Below are positions 809 through 29,460 of a DNA stretch of 64,000 bases, in pieces (the first letter of the stretch is position 1; the number at the start of each line of letters is the position of its first letter). The stretch comes from Candidatus Pacearchaeota archaeon (GTDB taxonomy: Archaea > Nanobdellota > Nanobdellia > Pacearchaeales > GW2011-AR1): positions 34,735 through 98,734 of the forward strand of contig JAGVXI010000013.1 of NCBI GenBank assembly GCA_018303855.1, read 5' to 3'. A program made the position numbers and the translations under genes. The notes beneath the pieces were generated by a model that worked only from the letters and a program-made list of their open reading frames with translations, was not told where the DNA came from and did not search any database.

Positions 809-1438
809 ATGGCATTTGGAAGAAATAAAAGGGAGTTAACTCCTGAACAAGAAGAAAGAATGGTTGCAGCATCTATAGTCATGGGTCCGCATGTTAAAGA
901 TAAAAATGGAAATGTGCATAGAGTGCCTGGCGGTTCTCGAGCTCTTTATGTTGCTAGTAGAGGTAAAGATTATGGAGACAAAGCCCAGCAAGCAACTACT
1001 CTTTTTCAATACGGTAGTGCATTGCAAGGTCAAACATCAGAAGTTGCAAGCATTATTAATTCTAGCCTTGGGATTTCACCAGAAGAGGCGGAAAGATTGT
1101 TAGAGGGGGGCATGGATTTAGGAAGTTTTTATTCTCAATCACTTTCAAGAGCAGATGTGCAGGCTAAAGGCGCAAAAATATACGAGGAATATTTAGATAA
1201 AGTAGAAGTTGGTGTTGTTTTATCTGAGCTTGGTGTTGGCGGGAAAAATTTCCCTAAACTTGCAAAATACTCAAACATGACTATGAAACAACTTAAAGAA
1301 GATGATAGTGCAGTTTACAAAGAACTAAAATCACTTTACTTGGACTATGTTGCAGAAACAGGAATTGGGCAATCAATAAATCAAGTAGGGCATATGAGAG
1401 CAAGCCAAAGAGTTTCTGGGTTGGAGAAAAAACTTTGA
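809..1438 (+). CDS. hypothetical protein, first gene of a 3-gene operon with a strong BRE/TATA promoter
   Basis: Long ORF with consistent coding composition. Conserved promoter motif at 729-756. No recognisable domain. Confidence 0.4.
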   Translation: MAFGRNKRELTPEQEERMVAASIVMGPHVKDKNGNVHRVPGGSRALYVASRGKDYGDKAQQATTLFQYGSALQGQTSEVASIINSSLGISPEEAERLLEGGMDLGSFYSQSLSRADVQAKGAKIYEEYLDKVEVGVVLSELGVGGKNFPKLAKYSNMTMKQLKEDDSAVYKELKSLYLDYVAETGIGQSINQVGHMRASQRVSGLEKKL

Positions 1439-1442
1439 GAAA

Positions 1443-1637
1443 ATGAAACAATTTAAGGATAAAGAAGGAAATGTTGTGGGATATGCTGGTAAAATAGTCG
1501 GACCTGTTATAGTTACTTTGCCTGAAAATTATCACCCAGGAAAAAATGGGCAACCTACAATTCAAGAATTTGGTAAAGCATTAAGAAGGGAATTATCAGA
1601 TTTTCTAGATCCTTCTCATGAAATAATTTTTCTGTAA
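1443..1637 (+). CDS. hypothetical small protein
   Basis: Tightly spaced ORF between 809-1438 and 1648-2127 on the same strand. Confidence 0.3.
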   Translation: MKQFKDKEGNVVGYAGKIVGPVIVTLPENYHPGKNGQPTIQEFGKALRRELSDFLDPSHEIIFL

Positions 1638-1647
1638 AATTCCTAAA

Positions 1648-2127
1648 ATGAACATAGAAAATTTGATGTTGAAGAGGGAGCATTTTTTCCAAGACCCAAA
1701 TAAGCCAATACAATGGTTTACAATGGCTCCAGTTCATCCAATATTAGCTAAACAAGGTTCATTTGATGTGAATTTAGCTTTTAAATGTCTTGATGACGCG
1801 CTTAGATTAACAATCGAAGATGCAAAAGAACTTCCCAAAGGAGCAATAAAGTTTGTAAAAAGAAGGGTTGTTGATGGAAAAGTTAGAAGTGTGCCTTTTA
1901 CAGAAATTTCAGACTCACAAATAGCTTATGACTGGATAAACGATAAAATGGAAGATAAAGAGGGAGTTACAAGATTTAGCAATGATGCAATTCTTATTGA
2001 AGGATTTCCTATAACCTCTGGCAAATTAGAAATAACATCGGACCAGTTAGAGTTGGGTGTGGCTGAGACTATTAGTCTAGATGGTAGAGATTGTATAGAA
2101 TATTTTGGTTTAAACCTACCAAAATAA
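1648..2127 (+). CDS. hypothetical protein
   Basis: ORF of 159 aa in the same operon. No recognisable motif. Confidence 0.4.
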   Translation: MNIENLMLKREHFFQDPNKPIQWFTMAPVHPILAKQGSFDVNLAFKCLDDALRLTIEDAKELPKGAIKFVKRRVVDGKVRSVPFTEISDSQIAYDWINDKMEDKEGVTRFSNDAILIEGFPITSGKLEITSDQLELGVAETISLDGRDCIEYFGLNLPK

Positions 2128-2605: not shown

Positions 2606-3256
2606 TCATATGTCTTTCTTCTTTTTTCCTTTATAATCCTTAAAGCATTTAGTTAAAGTTTCTTTTCTAATAATAAAAAAGTTCGTGCTATTCCTTAGTT
2701 CATTAGAGTACCCAAATGGAACAAATGCACTTAAAACCTCTTTTCCTGCTTTTTTTATTAATTTTACTGCAGGAACAAAATCAGTATCTCCAGATATTAA
2801 AATACAAACATCACATTCTTTATCAACAACTGACTTTTTTACCATATCAATGGCTATCCATACATCAATCCCCTTTTCCTTTCTAATAATATCTGAAAGG
2901 TCTAAGAAGCTAGCTTCAATTAATGGTTTACAGTTCTTGCATAAATCTAAAGAGTCAATTGTTTCTCTTTTTCTTTTTAATATTTCCTTACTTGATAATC
3001 TTTGCAGTTTTCTTGTTATAACTTTAATTCCTTCCTTTTCAAGTTCTGAAAGAAAACGCATATGGTCATAATAAGTTTTTTCTCCATCTGCAATATCTGG
3101 AATAGAAGCATACCACCTTATTTCCTGAAGAGATAATTTTAAGTTATTGCATATAAGCTTAGCAATTTTGTTTATAGATATCTCGCTTGGTTTAAAGAAT
3201 TTCTTTACATTATGGTACCAATTGTTAGCATCAACAAAGACAATTGCCTTTTTCAT
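2606..3256 (-). CDS. NYN-domain (LabA-like/DUF88) protein
   Basis: N-terminal KAIVFVDANNWYH... and later ISGDTDFVPAV match the LabA/NYN signature. It is paralogous to 26101-26640 and 28909-29460. Confidence 0.7.
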   Translation of the reverse strand: MKKAIVFVDANNWYHNVKKFFKPSEISINKIAKLICNNLKLSLQEIRWYASIPDIADGEKTYYDHMRFLSELEKEGIKVITRKLQRLSSKEILKRKRETIDSLDLCKNCKPLIEASFLDLSDIIRKEKGIDVWIAIDMVKKSVVDKECDVCILISGDTDFVPAVKLIKKAGKEVLSAFVPFGYSNELRNSTNFFIIRKETLTKCFKDYKGKKKKDI

Positions 3257-3306
3257 ATAGAATAACTGATTCAGTTTATTATAAACTTTATGAGGAGAAT
3301 AGGAAG

Positions 3307-3337
3307 CCCGGCATTACTCCGAAGAGCCATACCGGGG
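3307..3337. other. GC-rich hairpin CCCGGCAT-N14-ATACCGGGG, about 50 nt upstream of the NYN gene
   Basis: Inverted repeat seen directly. Related hairpins sit next to the two other NYN genes (26645-26673, 28873-28899). Confidence 0.5.
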
Positions 3338-3422
3338 ACTTGAATATTAATAATAAATCTAAGAGATATTTAAATATATCGTTTTACGGTTGCGTTAAGT
3401 TGTTCTTTTCCTGTTAAATTAC

Positions 3423-4388
3423 TTACCCCTCAATCAGCTCCTTAACAAGCTGAGCCATTGTTCTCATGAAGTCTTCTGTTTTAACTTGCCACTCGTCAAT
3501 CTCTACGCCTTTTAAATCAGTAACTTCGCCGTGTGCAATTTTTTTGTGCAGATAATGCAAATCCCTATAATCAATAACATATTTCATTTTTAACTTTTTA
3601 TTATCAACAAATGTTTCTTTTAAGTTGATTGGAATGTGCTCAGGCGAAGGCGGTGAGACATTTGCTGCAATTAAAGCTGCGTGAGCAGAATCAACCATCG
3701 CCCAGTATAATCCCTCTACTGCATTTAATTCAGCAACTTTGCTTCTAGAAATATGCAATGGAGCTCTTTGAAGGGCATTATAAACAGCTTCTGGCGTTGA
3801 TTTTATTTTGCCTTTTACCAGTAGATATTTTAGAGGCTCAAAAAATCCTCCAAAATCTATAATAGACTCGCCGTACCTTATGATATTTATAACAACTGGA
3901 TCGCCTTTTAGCAAATCTTCCCACCATGTGCTAAGCTTTATTGTGTTAACATGAATCTCCCTATTATAAGGATTGCTTTTCAGGGTTTTTTCAAGTTCTT
4001 CTCTGTACCATGCTATAAGTTCCTGGTCCCAGTTTATGGAAACATCGTCGATGATAATGACAATATCAATATCAGAGCCTGCAACATTGCTTTGCTTGAT
4101 TGTAGAACCAAAGAGAACCACAGATTTAACCATTTTATCAAATTTTTGGTAAACTTTTGTTGCAAAATCAAGGGCAATTTCTGTTTCTCTTTTTAACTGC
4201 AGTGTTGGAAGTTTTTTTGAATCAGGTTTTGAGTTTTTATTTTTATCTTTTTCAGCTTTCTCTTTTTTGTCAGCAAGCAGTTTTTTTACAACTTTGGCTT
4301 CTTGTTTTTCTTCTTCTTTTTTTAATGGTGTTTTATACTGCTCTTTTTTTTCAGCCTGTTTTTTTGCATCTCTTTTTTTCTTTTTCAT
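3423..4388 (-). CDS. nucleotidyltransferase-domain protein with Lys/Glu-rich N-terminal extension
   Basis: VVLFGSTIKQSNVAGSDIDIVIIID is the Pol-beta superfamily GS...D.D motif. The first ~90 aa are KE-rich and low complexity. Confidence 0.6.
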   Translation of the reverse strand: MKKKKRDAKKQAEKKEQYKTPLKKEEEKQEAKVVKKLLADKKEKAEKDKNKNSKPDSKKLPTLQLKRETEIALDFATKVYQKFDKMVKSVVLFGSTIKQSNVAGSDIDIVIIIDDVSINWDQELIAWYREELEKTLKSNPYNREIHVNTIKLSTWWEDLLKGDPVVINIIRYGESIIDFGGFFEPLKYLLVKGKIKSTPEAVYNALQRAPLHISRSKVAELNAVEGLYWAMVDSAHAALIAANVSPPSPEHIPINLKETFVDNKKLKMKYVIDYRDLHYLHKKIAHGEVTDLKGVEIDEWQVKTEDFMRTMAQLVKELIEG

Positions 4389-20160: not shown

Positions 20161-20394
20161 ATGAAGTATAAAGGTGATAGGCATGGAAATTTAATTGAGG
20201 TCTTACCAAAAGGCGTTGAAAAAAGAGTTAGGCTTGGTTGGACTCCGAGTCCAGGGTTATCTCCATTTAAATCTGATGGGGTAGTTTTTGACTATGATAA
20301 AAATGGAATGTTGCTTCCACCATGTCATGAGGACAGAAGCCAAATTCAAGTTCATTACTCGCCTAAGGTCTTTCAAGATAATTTTTTCTTTTAG
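20161..20394 (+). CDS. hypothetical small protein (3-prime end runs into a tandem repeat)
   Basis: ORF only. The stop codon lies inside the 28-bp repeat. Confidence 0.2.
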   Translation: MKYKGDRHGNLIEVLPKGVEKRVRLGWTPSPGLSPFKSDGVVFDYDKNGMLLPPCHEDRSQIQVHYSPKVFQDNFFF

Positions 20395-20469
20395 CTAAAT
20401 TTAAGATAATTTTTTCTTTTAGCTAAATTTAAGATAATTTTTTCTTTTAGCTAAATTTAAGATAATTTT
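20375..20469. repeat. 28-bp perfect tandem repeat, about 3.4 copies (AAGATAATTTTTTCTTTTAGCTAAATTT)
   Basis: Seen directly. It lies upstream of rpiB. Confidence 0.85.
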
Positions 20470-20502: not shown

Positions 20503-20955
20503 ATGGTGCAAACTAAAATTTATACTGCTAGCGACCATGTAGGTTTCAAGTTAAAGGAAAAGCTGAAAAAATATCTTGATAATGAAGGTTATGAAATAAA
20601 AGATTTTGGTTCACATAAATATAACAAGCTAGATGATTATCCTGATTTTGTAATTCCATTAGCAAAAGCTCTTTCTAAAGATAAAACGTTTAAGGGAGTT
20701 ATCTTCGGTAAATCGGGACAAGGAGAAGCAATTACTGCAAATAAAGTTAAAGGCATAAGGGCAGTTGTTTATTATGGTGGAAACCTAAATATAATAAAAC
20801 TTTCACGACAGCATAATGATTCAAATGTTCTTTCTCTTGGAGCTGGTTTTTTATCTTATCAAGAAGCAGTTAAAGCAGTTGATTTGTGGCTAAAAACTCC
20901 TTTTAGCAATGCCCTAAGGCATAAAAGAAGATTGGGGAAGATTGAAGGGAATTAA
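20503..20955 (+). CDS. rpiB: ribose-5-phosphate isomerase B (RpiB/LacAB family)
   Basis: 150 aa, with GSHKYNKLDDYPDF, GVIFGKSGQGEAITANK and SLGAGF matching the family. Confidence 0.75.
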   Translation: MVQTKIYTASDHVGFKLKEKLKKYLDNEGYEIKDFGSHKYNKLDDYPDFVIPLAKALSKDKTFKGVIFGKSGQGEAITANKVKGIRAVVYYGGNLNIIKLSRQHNDSNVLSLGAGFLSYQEAVKAVDLWLKTPFSNALRHKRRLGKIEGN

Positions 20956-21002: not shown

Positions 21003-21245
21003 TTGTATATGGAGACAACAATAAGAGTAAATCCAAGAACTAAAGAAGAACTTGATGCTTTTAGGCAATACAAAAGCGAGAGCTATGATGAATTAGTGAG
21101 AAAACTTATTTATTTAGCTAAATTGGCTGAAAAAGAACCCAAACTTAGCCAAAAGACTATTCTTGAAATAAGGGAAGCAAGAGAAAGAATTAAGAAAGGA
21201 GAATTCTATACAGAAGATGAAGCTAAGAAGATTCTTGGCTTGTAA
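21003..21245 (+). CDS. RelE/ParE-associated antitoxin (same family as 37190-37411)
   Basis: TIRVNPRTKEELDAFRQYKSESYDELVRKLI parallels TIQVSKELLEKLAVMKMHEKESYESIIWDLI of the antitoxin upstream of the intact RelE. Confidence 0.5.
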   Translation: MYMETTIRVNPRTKEELDAFRQYKSESYDELVRKLIYLAKLAEKEPKLSQKTILEIREARERIKKGEFYTEDEAKKILGL

Positions 21246-21248
21246 AAG

Positions 21249-21314
21249 ATGTACGAACTTAAGTTTGATAAGAAAGCCACTGAACTCTTCGGAAACCCAC
21301 CCGCCACATAACAT
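21249..21314 (+). pseudogene. RelE/ParE toxin remnant (21 codons)
   Basis: MYELKFDKKATELFGNPPAT* starts 4 nt after the antitoxin stop. It resembles the N-terminus of the intact toxin MYSVELSRTAEKQFFKL at 37412. Confidence 0.4.
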
Positions 21315-26100: not shown

Positions 26101-26640
26101 ATGAAAGATGAAAAAAGCAAAGAAAGAATCGCCATTTTTATTGATGGAAGCAACCTTTATCATAGCTTAAAAAATTTAAATGTTAATGAAATAAATTTTG
26201 ATAAATTAGTAAAAAAATTAAAAGGCGATAGACAAATTGTTTCTATATTCTATTATAATGCTCCTTTAGACATTAAATATGACCAAAAGAAATACTGGGA
26301 ACAGCAGAAATTTTTTGATAAGTTGAGAAAATTACCTTTCTTCAAAGTTGTTTTATGTAAAATGAGAAAAATAAGAAAAGATGTAAAAATTGTTGGTTAT
26401 GAAGTTAAAGGTGACGATGTTCATTTAGCTGTTGATTTGTTAAGTGGGGCCTATGAAAATCTTTACGATGTTGCAATCATTGTTTCAGGAGACGAAGATT
26501 TTGTTCCTGTTCTAAAAAGGGTCCAAAAATTGGGTAAGAAGGTAGAAAATGCCTATTTTACATCTAGCTCTTCAAATGCATTAAAGAATTCATCAAATAC
26601 TTCAGTTTGCATTAACCATTTTATTAAAGAAATAATATAA
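26101..26640 (+). CDS. NYN-domain (LabA-like) protein
   Basis: RIAIFIDGSNLYHSLKNL...IVSGDEDFVPVLKRVQKLGKKV. Confidence 0.7.
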   Translation: MKDEKSKERIAIFIDGSNLYHSLKNLNVNEINFDKLVKKLKGDRQIVSIFYYNAPLDIKYDQKKYWEQQKFFDKLRKLPFFKVVLCKMRKIRKDVKIVGYEVKGDDVHLAVDLLSGAYENLYDVAIIVSGDEDFVPVLKRVQKLGKKVENAYFTSSSSNALKNSSNTSVCINHFIKEII

Positions 26641-26644
26641 ACTG

Positions 26645-26673
26645 CCCGGTATTGCCCGAAGACCATACCGGGG
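26645..26673. other. GC-rich hairpin CCCGGTAT-N12-ATACCGGGG immediately 3-prime of the NYN gene
   Basis: Seen directly. It shares its core with the 3307-3337 and 28873-28899 hairpins. Confidence 0.5.
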
Positions 26674-26822
26674 AATATATTGTTATCACCCATTCACACT
26701 TTAAAAATTCTTCGGTTGCTATGGGTTGTGCAATATTCTGCATTAATGTTGCCAACTTAATTTATACAACAACATTTAAAACTCTTTCAAGCTTATTTTT
26801 AACATAAAAAGAGGTATACAGA

Positions 26823-28742: not shown

Positions 28743-28872
28743 AAATGAAAGAAGCGGATTTAACACCATGATTAATTTATATAACTCCTAACCCATTAAA
28801 ATTGATTGTCTATTCACAAAAAGACTTTCCGAAAGTTATTTAAAGATGTGGCTGGTACTATGTTCATATGCT

Positions 28873-28899
28873 CCCCGGTATTGCTTCGGCAAGACCGGG
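28873..28899. other. GC-rich hairpin with UUCG tetraloop (CCCCGGUAUUGC-UUCG-GCAAGACCGGG) just upstream of the NYN gene start
   Basis: Seen directly. About 11 bp stem with one mismatch. Confidence 0.5.
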
Positions 28900-28908
28900 T
28901 TTTATACT

Positions 28909-29460
28909 ATGAAACGAGTTGTTCTATTTATTGATGGAAGTAATTTTTATTATGGGCTTAAATCAATTTACGGAGAAGATAAAGAGCTTCATAATTTTAA
29001 TTTTTTAAAACTTGGAGAAAAGCTTGCAGACAAGAGAGATTTGGTGAGAGTATATTATTATAATGCCCCATTAGATTATAAAAATAATCCTGAAAAATAT
29101 GCCAAACAGCAGAAGTTTTTTGACAAAGTTAAAGCAACAGACAAAGTAAAGCTTATTTTAAGTAGACTCCAAAAAAGAAAAATAAAAGGAACTGACAGAT
29201 ACTACTACGCCATAAAAGGAGACGATATTCACTTGGCTTCTGATATGATTAAAGGAGCATATGAAGGCATGTACGATGTTGCTGTTCTCGTTTCTGGAGA
29301 TGGTGATTTTATTCCAGCAGTTAATATTATTCAAGAAAAGGGCAAGCTCGTAGAAAATGCTTATTTCAAACAAAGTTTATCTTGGCATTTAAAACAGGAA
29401 TGTGACAAATCAATAAAATTAACCAAAGAAATTCTTGACTATTGTTTCGATTTAAAATGA
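28909..29460 (+). CDS. NYN-domain (LabA-like) protein
   Basis: MKRVVLFIDGSNFYYGLKSIY...LVSGDGDFIPAVNIIQEKGKLV. Start moved to the internal ATG at 28909. The track N-terminal extension covers the hairpin. Confidence 0.7.
   Translation: MKRVVLFIDGSNFYYGLKSIYGEDKELHNFNFLKLGEKLADKRDLVRVYYYNAPLDYKNNPEKYAKQQKFFDKVKATDKVKLILSRLQKRKIKGTDRYYYAIKGDDIHLASDMIKGAYEGMYDVAVLVSGDGDFIPAVNIIQEKGKLVENAYFKQSLSWHLKQECDKSIKLTKEILDYCFDLK

Follow-up and report, generated by a model that had tools for sequence, protein, structure and literature searches.

The stretch of DNA analysed here (hereafter the window; 64 kb of contig JAGVXI010000013.1 from a Candidatus Pacearchaeota archaeon) contains three genes for proteins of the NYN family (PF01936), NYN1, NYN2 and NYN3, each of which is accompanied by a short GC-rich hairpin (H1, H2 and H3, respectively). 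This gene–RNA pairing recurs in nearly every archaeal and bacterial relative examined, which points to an RNA partner for the NYN family. In an earlier inspection of the letters of the window (the original prediction), the three hairpins had been placed within 60 nucleotides (nt) of the ends of the NYN genes and had been proposed as cis targets of the nucleases, autoregulatory elements or small structured RNAs co-mobilised with the genes. The genes, the hairpins and the transcription signals predicted around them, including elements resembling the B recognition element (BRE) and the TATA box, are listed below by window coordinates.

2606..3256, minus strand: NYN1 gene, 216 amino acids; PF01936 match, E value 2e-16, 61 bits.
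3276..3289, minus strand: second BRE/TATA-like element, AAAGTTTATAATAA, putative, centred ~25 nt 5′ of the NYN1 ATG.
3307..3337, minus strand: H1 hairpin, CCCCGGUAU-G-GCUC-UUCG-GAGU-A-AUGCCGGG, from pattern, fold energy and covariation (alignment A6).
3338..3348, minus strand: conserved single-stranded 5′ tail of the predicted H1 RNA, AAUAUUCAAGU, nearly invariant in six NYN1 orthologue loci.
3366..3378, minus strand: promoter-like TATA element of H1, TATATTTAAATAT, predicted from consensus, 30–42 nt 5′ of the hairpin and matching the archaeal TATA peak.
26101..26640, plus strand: NYN2 gene, 179 amino acids; PF01936 match, E value 4.5e-28, 99 bits.
26616..26644, minus strand: U-rich 3′ tail of the predicted H2 RNA, CAGUUUAUAUUAUUUCUUU..., overlapping the NYN2 stop and last codons in antisense.
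26645..26673, minus strand: H2 hairpin, CCCCGGUAU-G-GUC-UUCG-GGC-A-AUACCGGG, on the strand opposite NYN2; covariance-model match of 26.5 bits.
26674..26681, minus strand: 5′ tail of the predicted H2 RNA, AAUAUAUU, at the position of the ATAT(A/G)yyC motif conserved before the hairpins.
26699..26715, minus strand: BRE/TATA-like element of H2, CCGAAGAATTTTTAAAG, from the position statistics of archaeal units.
28829..28845, plus strand: BRE/TATA-like element of the predicted H3 RNA and NYN3 transcript, CCGAAAGTTATTTAAAG, from archaeal position statistics.
28865..28872, plus strand: 5′ tail of H3, CAUAUGCU, at the position of the tail motif conserved in the relatives.
28873..28899, plus strand: H3 hairpin, CCCCGGU-A-UUGC-UUCG-GCAA-G-ACCGGG; covariance-model match of 59.5 bits, covariation in alignment A2.
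28900..28908, plus strand: UUUU tract and 9-nt spacer to the NYN3 start, short-spacer class.
28909..29460, plus strand: NYN3 gene, 183 amino acids; PF01936 match, E value 1e-24, 88 bits.

All three proteins exceed the curated cutoff of PF01936 (24.2 bits), with E values of 2e-16 to 5e-28, and the neighbours of the hairpins are NYN genes, as had been read from the sequence. Their mutual identity is 29–48 %. The AlphaFold2 model of NYN3 (predicted local distance difference test, pLDDT, 92.7) was matched by Foldseek to 2qip (VPA0982; 4e-10) and to the NYN domain of MARF1 (6e-5), with T5 flap endonuclease also among the best, and the acidic residues D9, D106, D123, D131 and D133 are invariant in 23 sequences that span all three clades. 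By sequence and by fold (PIN-like, with conserved acidic metal-binding residues) the window proteins are members of the NYN family. NYN2 (E value 7e-22) and NYN3 also match the PADLOC candidate HEC-09, an NYN protein embedded in Hma defence loci. The function of NYN.COG1432 is given as unknown in a survey of the PIN superfamily (PMC5499597); a CRISPR-associated PF01936 protein is an active, non-specific, Mn-dependent single-stranded RNA endonuclease (bioRxiv 10.1101/2024.04.08.588522). Open reading frame (ORF) finders and public gene calls run the NYN frames upstream through the hairpin and give false N-terminal extensions, such as a 204-amino-acid ORF from 28846 (window 28846–29460) and calls of 252–268 amino acids for NYN1 orthologues (L211, L212, L216).

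The pattern CCCGGYAT-N(5-25)-CCGGG matches the 64-kb window only at 3307–3336, 26645–26672 and 28874–28899 (0 matches expected; 100 shuffles), and a covariance model trained on relatives returned H3 and H2 with the scores listed above and no other match; the positions of the three hairpins, their shared core and their restriction to these sites were thereby confirmed. GC-rich hairpins do stand out, as had been remarked, at the 31.9 % GC content of the window. H1 ends 50 nt from the NYN1 ATG (3256, minus strand), H2 starts 4 nt past the NYN2 stop (26640) and H3 ends 9 nt from the NYN3 ATG (28909), so that each lies within the 60 nt originally given. The chance of all three falling so close to NYN gene ends is roughly 2e-7, from ~(360/64000)^3, a figure that is our own estimate and not the output of a tool. 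A comparably stable hairpin occupies the equivalent position in only ~4 of the 58 other long ORFs of the window.

The three hairpins follow a common plan: a short A/U-rich tail, a C, a GC-rich lower stem of 6–8 base pairs (bp) and, further up, a 1×1 purine–purine mismatch, an upper stem of 3–4 bp and a c(UUCG)g loop. This architecture is formed on the minus strand by H1 and H2 and on the plus strand by H3, with fold energies on those strands of −19.0 (H1), −16.8 (H2) and −16.3 kcal/mol (H3) and z-scores of −3.1, −2.6 and −3.1, respectively. The UUCG loop noted earlier for 28873–28899 is present there, and is not a trait of H3 alone, as H1 and H2 carry it on the minus strand. On the plus strand H1 folds less well (−12.3 kcal/mol); H1 and H2 are weaker on this strand because the G·U pairs that both contain on the minus strand turn into A·C mismatches. 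Since H2 folds on the minus strand, it is antisense to NYN2 and not a sense structure of the 3′ untranslated region (UTR).

The same locus is present in closely related strains, and the proteins come from Candidatus Pacearchaeota and Nanoarchaeota (DPANN archaea). A protein-guided scan with one genome per species gave 80 NYN loci, and the hairpin was found beside the gene in 78 of them, many of these sequences being related, so that the counts here and below overstate the number of independent events. Of the two exceptions, one is without upstream sequence; in the other (L035) 426 nt separate the match from the NYN gene downstream of it, the N-terminus of which is duplicated. Hairpin types H1, H2 and H3 track the NYN1, NYN2 and NYN3 clades, respectively, and an almost invariant H1 unit lies upstream in all six NYN1 orthologue loci (6/6), in which the proteins are 76–86 % identical. 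In a strain variant of window 26101–26640 (L004, 231–732) NYN2 is split into two overlapping pieces, one of them a called gene of 132 amino acids without a Pfam match, and H2 is intact. A precise insertion or deletion of NYN2 together with H2 was considered for L005, from which both are missing; synteny there ends where nagB begins, and the locus was set aside as uninformative.

Base pairs were counted in MAFFT alignments, as a model-based alignment leans toward the structure of its model. The lower stems of NYN3-type hairpins vary in sequence yet stay paired (CCCCGG/CCGGG, CCCCAG/CUGGG, CCCCAU/GUGGG, CCUGCC/GGCAGG and others). In alignment A2 (25 H3-type loci) 94.8 % of cells are paired, a percentage slightly lowered by a subgroup in which a 1-nt bulge replaces the 1×1 mismatch, compared with 29–51 % in slid controls; double-change cells number 39, a value that none of 500 shuffles attains (14.1 ± 2.7). 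Alignment A6 (H1/H2 type) is 93.1 % paired, and at two positions U·G is the most frequent pair, by which the strand of the H1/H2 type is fixed. In the bacterial and methanogen units described below (A4), RNAalifold gave compensatory changes at 12 of 17 pairs. Covariation across related genomes, put forward with the original prediction as a check, is thus found as compensatory pairing in A2, A6 and A4. With pairing beyond that of both shuffled and slid controls, the hairpins are structured RNA elements.

The reverse association was determined by a gene-blind scan of metagenome contigs with CCC-N4-UUGCUUCGGCAA-N4-GGG (at least 120 loci; four viral-contig matches are added to the counts), the resulting fractions holding for hairpins with the UUGC-UUCG-GCAA core. 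In the subset with a paired lower stem, a non-canonical 1×1 mismatch and at least 300 nt of room, a same-strand NYN gene follows 49 of 62 mismatch-bearing hairpins among the matches listed, and truncated NYN frames follow at least 6 of the remaining 13. Fully paired look-alikes, which have a standard pair at the mismatch position and are terminator-like, were near an NYN gene in none of 40 cases, again among the matches listed. The contrast between 49/62 and 0/40 identifies the 1×1 mismatch as a defining feature of the element and makes the association a two-way one; the enrichment beside NYN genes that had been suggested is therefore seen from either side, and the opposite case, a hairpin spread through the genome without relation to NYN genes or one without conservation, does not apply. 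The four pattern matches on viral contigs were not near an NYN gene, and three of them have a standard pair at the mismatch position. Intact hairpins remain beside decayed NYN genes, and no intact NYN gene without a hairpin was found.

Intact units followed by truncated NYN frames occur in L133 (about 690–1000, with an IS200-like gene just past the truncated frame), L089, L120, L145, L178 and L194. In two units without NYN (L167 and L202) the adjacent ORF is PIN/VapC-like by eye (DTSVWL and DTYAWVEYF, respectively), which could be coincidence or an exchange of the nuclease partner. A further class of units has another conserved tail, AUUGCAUC (L100, L103, L106, L163, L164, L168, L170, L186, L192, L203, L204); its NYN gene is 28–36 % identical to the window paralogues and starts 0–5 nt past the hairpin.

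Orientation was analysed with a covariance model built from upstream H3-type units only and run on both strands of the window and the 80 loci (318 kb), which gave 66 matches at E ≤ 1. By placement, 39 are upstream-sense, 19 directly downstream-antisense (none of which belonged to the training set) and 0 downstream-sense. Four are upstream-antisense: three arise from near-palindromes already counted, read on their reverse strand, and the fourth (L076) is weak and unexplained; the last four lie far from the gene and comprise two artefacts of the stop-codon rule, the L035 match at 426 nt and an orphan in L042. The 3′ end of the hairpin always faces the NYN gene. In archaea the units are upstream of NYN3-like and NYN1-like genes and convergent with NYN2-like genes, with L042, which has both, as the exception; bacterial NYN genes, for which NYN3 is the best match, have units in either arrangement, upstream or convergent. 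In L042 the units flank one NYN gene (upstream-sense and downstream-antisense), and an extra extended hairpin directly after an unrelated 236-amino-acid gene is the only orphan in the 80 loci (hairpin coordinates 815–874, minus strand; 1410–1455, plus strand; 2032–2091, minus strand).

Transcription signals were predicted by comparison with consensus sequences in 57 archaeal units. A purine-rich BRE and a TATA-like motif lie at −42 to −31 from the hairpin, with 103 of 130 occurrences of TATA-like hexamers at −40 to −31, and the conserved ATAT(A/G)yyC is found at −8 to −1, the expected transcription-start zone. At least six T are present in the first 10 nt past the hairpin in 43 of the 57 units, and a T-run of at least four in 40. 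The layout of TATA element and hairpin seen for H1 is the same in the NYN1 orthologue loci L211–L216, and transcription of H1 is predicted to start inside the 5′ tail (3338..3348); a motif near-identical to the BRE/TATA-like element of H2 is found at equal distance in loci L070, L071, L072, L078 and L085.

The distance between hairpin and ATG is bimodal, being 8–15 nt in one class (11 loci, including NYN3 of the window) and 41–53 nt in the other (including NYN1). With a spacer of 8–15 nt, NYN would be expressed by read-through only; at 28900..28908 there is no room for a second promoter, and NYN3 would therefore be read through from the hairpin promoter. The spacers of 41–53 nt contain a second element, cuAAAG-TTTATTAA, ~21–30 nt before the ATG, as for the promoter of a leaderless mRNA, and from the corresponding putative element at 3276..3289 a near-leaderless NYN1 mRNA of its own would arise. 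The U-rich tails of the convergent H2-type units reach into the last part of the NYN coding sequence; one third of all units are convergent and antisense to the gene. The promoter-like motif at a fixed distance is what an independent archaeal transcription unit would display, and the transcript itself is predicted. Of the three options originally offered, the small structured RNA linked to the gene is the one favoured by these data (own promoter-like BRE/TATA element, an antisense third, a putative second promoter for NYN in the long-spacer class). A purely cis-acting target in the 5′ or 3′ UTR cannot explain the antisense class, to which 26645–26673 belongs, and co-mobilisation is not supported, no mobile-element boundaries having been found.

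A longer NYN-linked unit was found in Omnitrophota, WOR-3, Brocadiales, Planctomycetia, Chloroflexota, one Bacillota genome and Methanomicrobiales. In bacteria it opens with a near-consensus sigma-70 promoter (11 of 12 matches), after which two hairpins (hairpin 1 and hairpin 2), each preceded by the linker AAUUAACUC, lead to the ribosome-binding site and NYN; hairpin 2 carries a U tract and is terminator-like. At further loci the complete unit lies downstream of the gene in convergent orientation, with the promoter on the opposite strand. The archaeal covariance model detects hairpin 1 of several bacterial units. Bacterial versions contain 2–4 non-identical hairpins joined by a repeated AAUUAAC linker; a copy adjacent to ArdC on plasmid pCCELLA01 of Carboxydocella thermautotrophica, with CTH_10004 as its NYN gene, comprises four hairpins followed by a terminator and then NYN, and a phage-like scaffold has three hairpins upstream of NYN. 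In the plasmid and phage collections only three NYN3 relatives were found, two of them with upstream multi-hairpin units; a GC-rich Streptomyces locus from the same search was uninterpretable.

No conserved protein neighbour was found, the largest family of flanking ORFs spanning 4 of the 80 loci. A covarying RNA with promoter-like signals, a terminator-like tail, a constant orientation and clade-specific types, the lack of a protein partner and the survival of hairpins beside decayed NYN genes are therefore best fitted by a two-component module of RNA and protein. Our preference, which is a tentative one, is for a separately transcribed small RNA that would act as the cognate partner of the NYN nuclease, most likely as an RNA antitoxin or inhibitor, or as a regulator. 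The archaeal RNA would be ~40–50 nt long and consist of an A/U-rich 5′ tail of 7–11 nt, the GC-rich mismatch hairpin and a U-rich tail; transcription would start from a dedicated BRE/TATA promoter and invariably run toward the neighbouring NYN gene, giving a discrete, abundant transcript, made in excess and ending at the U tract. For the H3 type, NYN mRNA would come from read-through and be less abundant; for the H1 type, it would be made from the second, neighbouring promoter; and for the H2 type, the small RNA would be antisense to the NYN mRNA and overlap it at the 3′ end. NYN itself may bind, and perhaps cut, the junction of tail and hairpin, and the RNA would keep NYN inactive or down-regulated.

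Several points weigh against an RNA antitoxin. Promoters and terminators are predicted from consensus, and a T-run of at least five is present in only 23 of the 57 archaeal units. NYN1 is unusually well conserved, as a housekeeping protein no less than a toxin might be. HEC-09 was without phage protection in the single published test. Toxin–antitoxin and defence genes are only modestly frequent among the neighbours (~10 of 128, a raw count without background control), and few plasmids and phages of the collections searched carry the module. Finally, the archaeal RNA is a single hairpin, unlike the known type III antitoxin RNAs, which are built of 2–5 identical tandem repeats, and the fold of the toxin is another one.

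The main rival, possible although we consider it rather unlikely, is a purely regulatory element without a toxin, in which NYN sets its own expression by binding or cutting the hairpin while it is being transcribed: an upstream hairpin would attenuate the sense transcript, and a downstream one would serve to control an antisense transcript. In the short-spacer class (8–15 nt, including NYN3 of the window) the hairpin must be in the leader of the NYN mRNA; in bacteria, the site that hairpin 2 and its U tract form upstream of the ribosome-binding site, past the promoter, is terminator-like. As the 3′ end of the hairpin faces the gene, any read-through leads into it, in sense or antisense, and the high conservation of NYN1 would fit a tightly controlled cellular enzyme. 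Autoregulation of a non-toxic enzyme explains the short-spacer leaders in this way, and explains the separate promoters and the antisense class less simply: an apparent NYN promoter 3′ of the hairpin in the long-spacer class would leave the hairpin outside the mRNA, and the sense and antisense layouts would need opposite effects of one protein–RNA contact. Intact hairpin units, moreover, survive beside truncated NYN genes.

We judge it improbable that the small RNA is a structural or specificity subunit that activates or targets NYN, rather than inhibiting it, in a ribonucleoprotein for cellular RNA processing. As an obligate subunit of such a minimal particle, the RNA would use its tail and mismatch helix to position or license the nuclease on cellular or viral RNA. 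Cognate hairpins specific to each clade, a conserved single-stranded tail adjoining the helix, the near invariance of both NYN1 and H1 across orthologues and the lack of a conserved protein partner are compatible with this proposal. The tail, however, is conserved and not variable, unlike a programmable guide, no target complementarity was identified, and a coupling of expression better explains why the hairpin strictly faces the gene and why a terminator precedes the gene. If the proposal were true, a new, RNA-dependent class of nuclease would be common to DPANN archaea, methanogens and many bacterial phyla.

An element acting as DNA (an operator palindrome, an attC-like recombination or cassette site, or a mobile-element end, double-stranded or extruded as a single strand) is very improbable. 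Placement forward upstream and inverted downstream mimics inverted terminal repeats, and L042 has hairpins on both sides of the NYN gene; against this, pairing is kept while the sequence drifts, G·U pairs are tolerated on one strand only and the loop is c(UUCG)g, a stable type specific to RNA. In most loci the hairpin occurs once; neither arrays nor direct-repeat scars nor attC core sites were observed, and the only three copies in 64 kb are all at NYN genes. Integron attC sites and repeated extragenic palindromes were likewise rejected, as there are no arrays beside unrelated genes and the orphan of L042 is the only one in 80 loci.

The reading with the least to recommend it is that of generic terminators of transcription, or hairpins that stabilise mRNA, located near these genes by chance: the GC-rich stems are followed by U-rich sequence and bacterial hairpin 2 matches the terminator consensus, but the U tract points toward the NYN gene and not away from the upstream gene (0 of 66 matches downstream-sense), same-core hairpins without the mismatch are near NYN in 0 of 40 cases against 49 of 62 with it (among the matches listed), and a comparable hairpin accompanies only ~4 of the window's 58 other long ORFs. 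Hairpins, moreover, are dispensable for termination in archaea. A bacterial-type intrinsic terminator of the neighbouring gene is contradicted by the same absence of downstream-sense matches and by the look-alikes, which were never near NYN among the matches listed.

The genes around NYN include nucleotidyltransferases of the MNT type (6 of 128 neighbours, the commonest), MazF, PIN and transposases, and their Pfam content hints weakly at a toxin–antitoxin or defence context. In the window, the gene directly upstream of the H1 unit (3423–4388, minus strand) codes for a nucleotidyltransferase (Polbeta/NTP_transf_2) with a weak HEPN match. Further along the window, a perfect 28-nt tandem repeat, AAGATAATTTTTTCTTTTAGCTAAATTT, is present at 20375–20469 (3.4 copies, 100 % match), in an intergenic region just upstream of ORF 20503–20955. 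A small ORF, METTIRVNPRTKEELDAFRQYK..., followed by a 20-codon stub, MYELKFDKKATELFGNPPAT, lies at 21010–21310 and looks by eye like an antitoxin gene and the truncated start of a RelE/ParE-type toxin.

No tRNA gene was found in the window (1–64000) by ARAGORN, and no Rfam family reached its gathering score there; in a search of Rfam 15, including the abiF motif, against the window and 17 related loci, the only match at gathering score was one tRNA, and at E ≤ 5 the hairpin regions gave no meaningful match. A split tRNA or a fragment of a known RNA is unsupported by these searches. The hairpin association is not described in the literature searched on NYN, PF01936, COG1432 and DUF88, no associated RNA is mentioned for NYN.COG1432/LabA-like proteins, VPA0982 (PDB 2qip) or HEC-09 in the sources searched, and the terms 'NYN', 'LabA', 'abiF' and 'nuclease' are absent from the main text of a paper on 224 candidate RNA motifs. 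The RNA family is new and its association undescribed, without precedent in Rfam 15 or the literature searched.

NYN proteins (PF01936/COG1432) are among the largest prokaryotic nuclease families of unknown function (PMC5499597). A conserved, clade-specific RNA partner would be the first concrete, testable lead on what they do, whether the RNA serves to inhibit, to regulate or to guide, and may bear on the role of the defence candidate HEC-09. If the RNA is an antitoxin, RNA-antitoxin systems would be extended to a new toxin fold and, as far as is known, to archaea, including genome-reduced DPANN lineages that keep three copies in 64 kb.

Among known systems, ribonucleases that autoregulate through hairpins in their own transcripts include those of the E. 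coli rnc and rne leaders and mammalian Regnase-1, an NYN/PIN-like ribonuclease that cuts a stem-loop in its own 3′ UTR. They resemble the present case in that a structured element is linked to a nuclease gene whose product may recognise it, the short-spacer hairpin being in the NYN leader, and differ in that the element here has a promoter-like region of its own, is sometimes antisense and is often followed by a separate predicted promoter of the gene. In type I toxin–antitoxin pairs with convergent, 3′-overlapping antisense RNAs, such as txpA/RatA and bsrG/SR4 of B. subtilis, the overlap is like that predicted between the 3′ ends of the convergent H2-type small RNA and the NYN2 mRNA; type I toxins, however, are small membrane peptides, and the same hairpin family is here also found upstream-sense, where antisense pairing is impossible.

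The abiF motif is a hairpin RNA that was found through its association with a nuclease-type gene and later shown to be an RNA antitoxin; in Clostridioides difficile, RCd22 neutralises AbiF (Abi_2, HEPN-like) by direct RNA–protein contact, in cis and in trans (bioRxiv 10.1101/2025.04.15.648962). Protein family and RNA are different there, and the present pair is predicted from sequence; a conserved hairpin motif linked to a nuclease-type gene is common to both.

In type III toxin–antitoxin systems (ToxIN, CptIN, TenpIN) the toxins have the ToxN/AbiQ/CptN/TenpN fold and not the NYN/PIN-like fold found here, they are toxic, are neutralised by direct binding of the antitoxin RNA and also process it, properties that NYN may have, and none of the known systems is convergent or antisense, as is one third of the present units. 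To our knowledge, such systems have not been described in archaea. The layout of an upstream RNA followed by a terminator is absent from H2 and the 18 other convergent units, is outlined in H3 and H1 (U tract) and is present in the bacterial upstream units. In their upstream form, the NYN units resemble type III systems in a short, structured non-coding RNA that precedes a predicted endoribonuclease gene on the same strand under one promoter, with a terminator-like site between RNA and gene by which the RNA would be made in excess; no conserved protein antitoxin was found, and RNA and protein would form cognate pairs.

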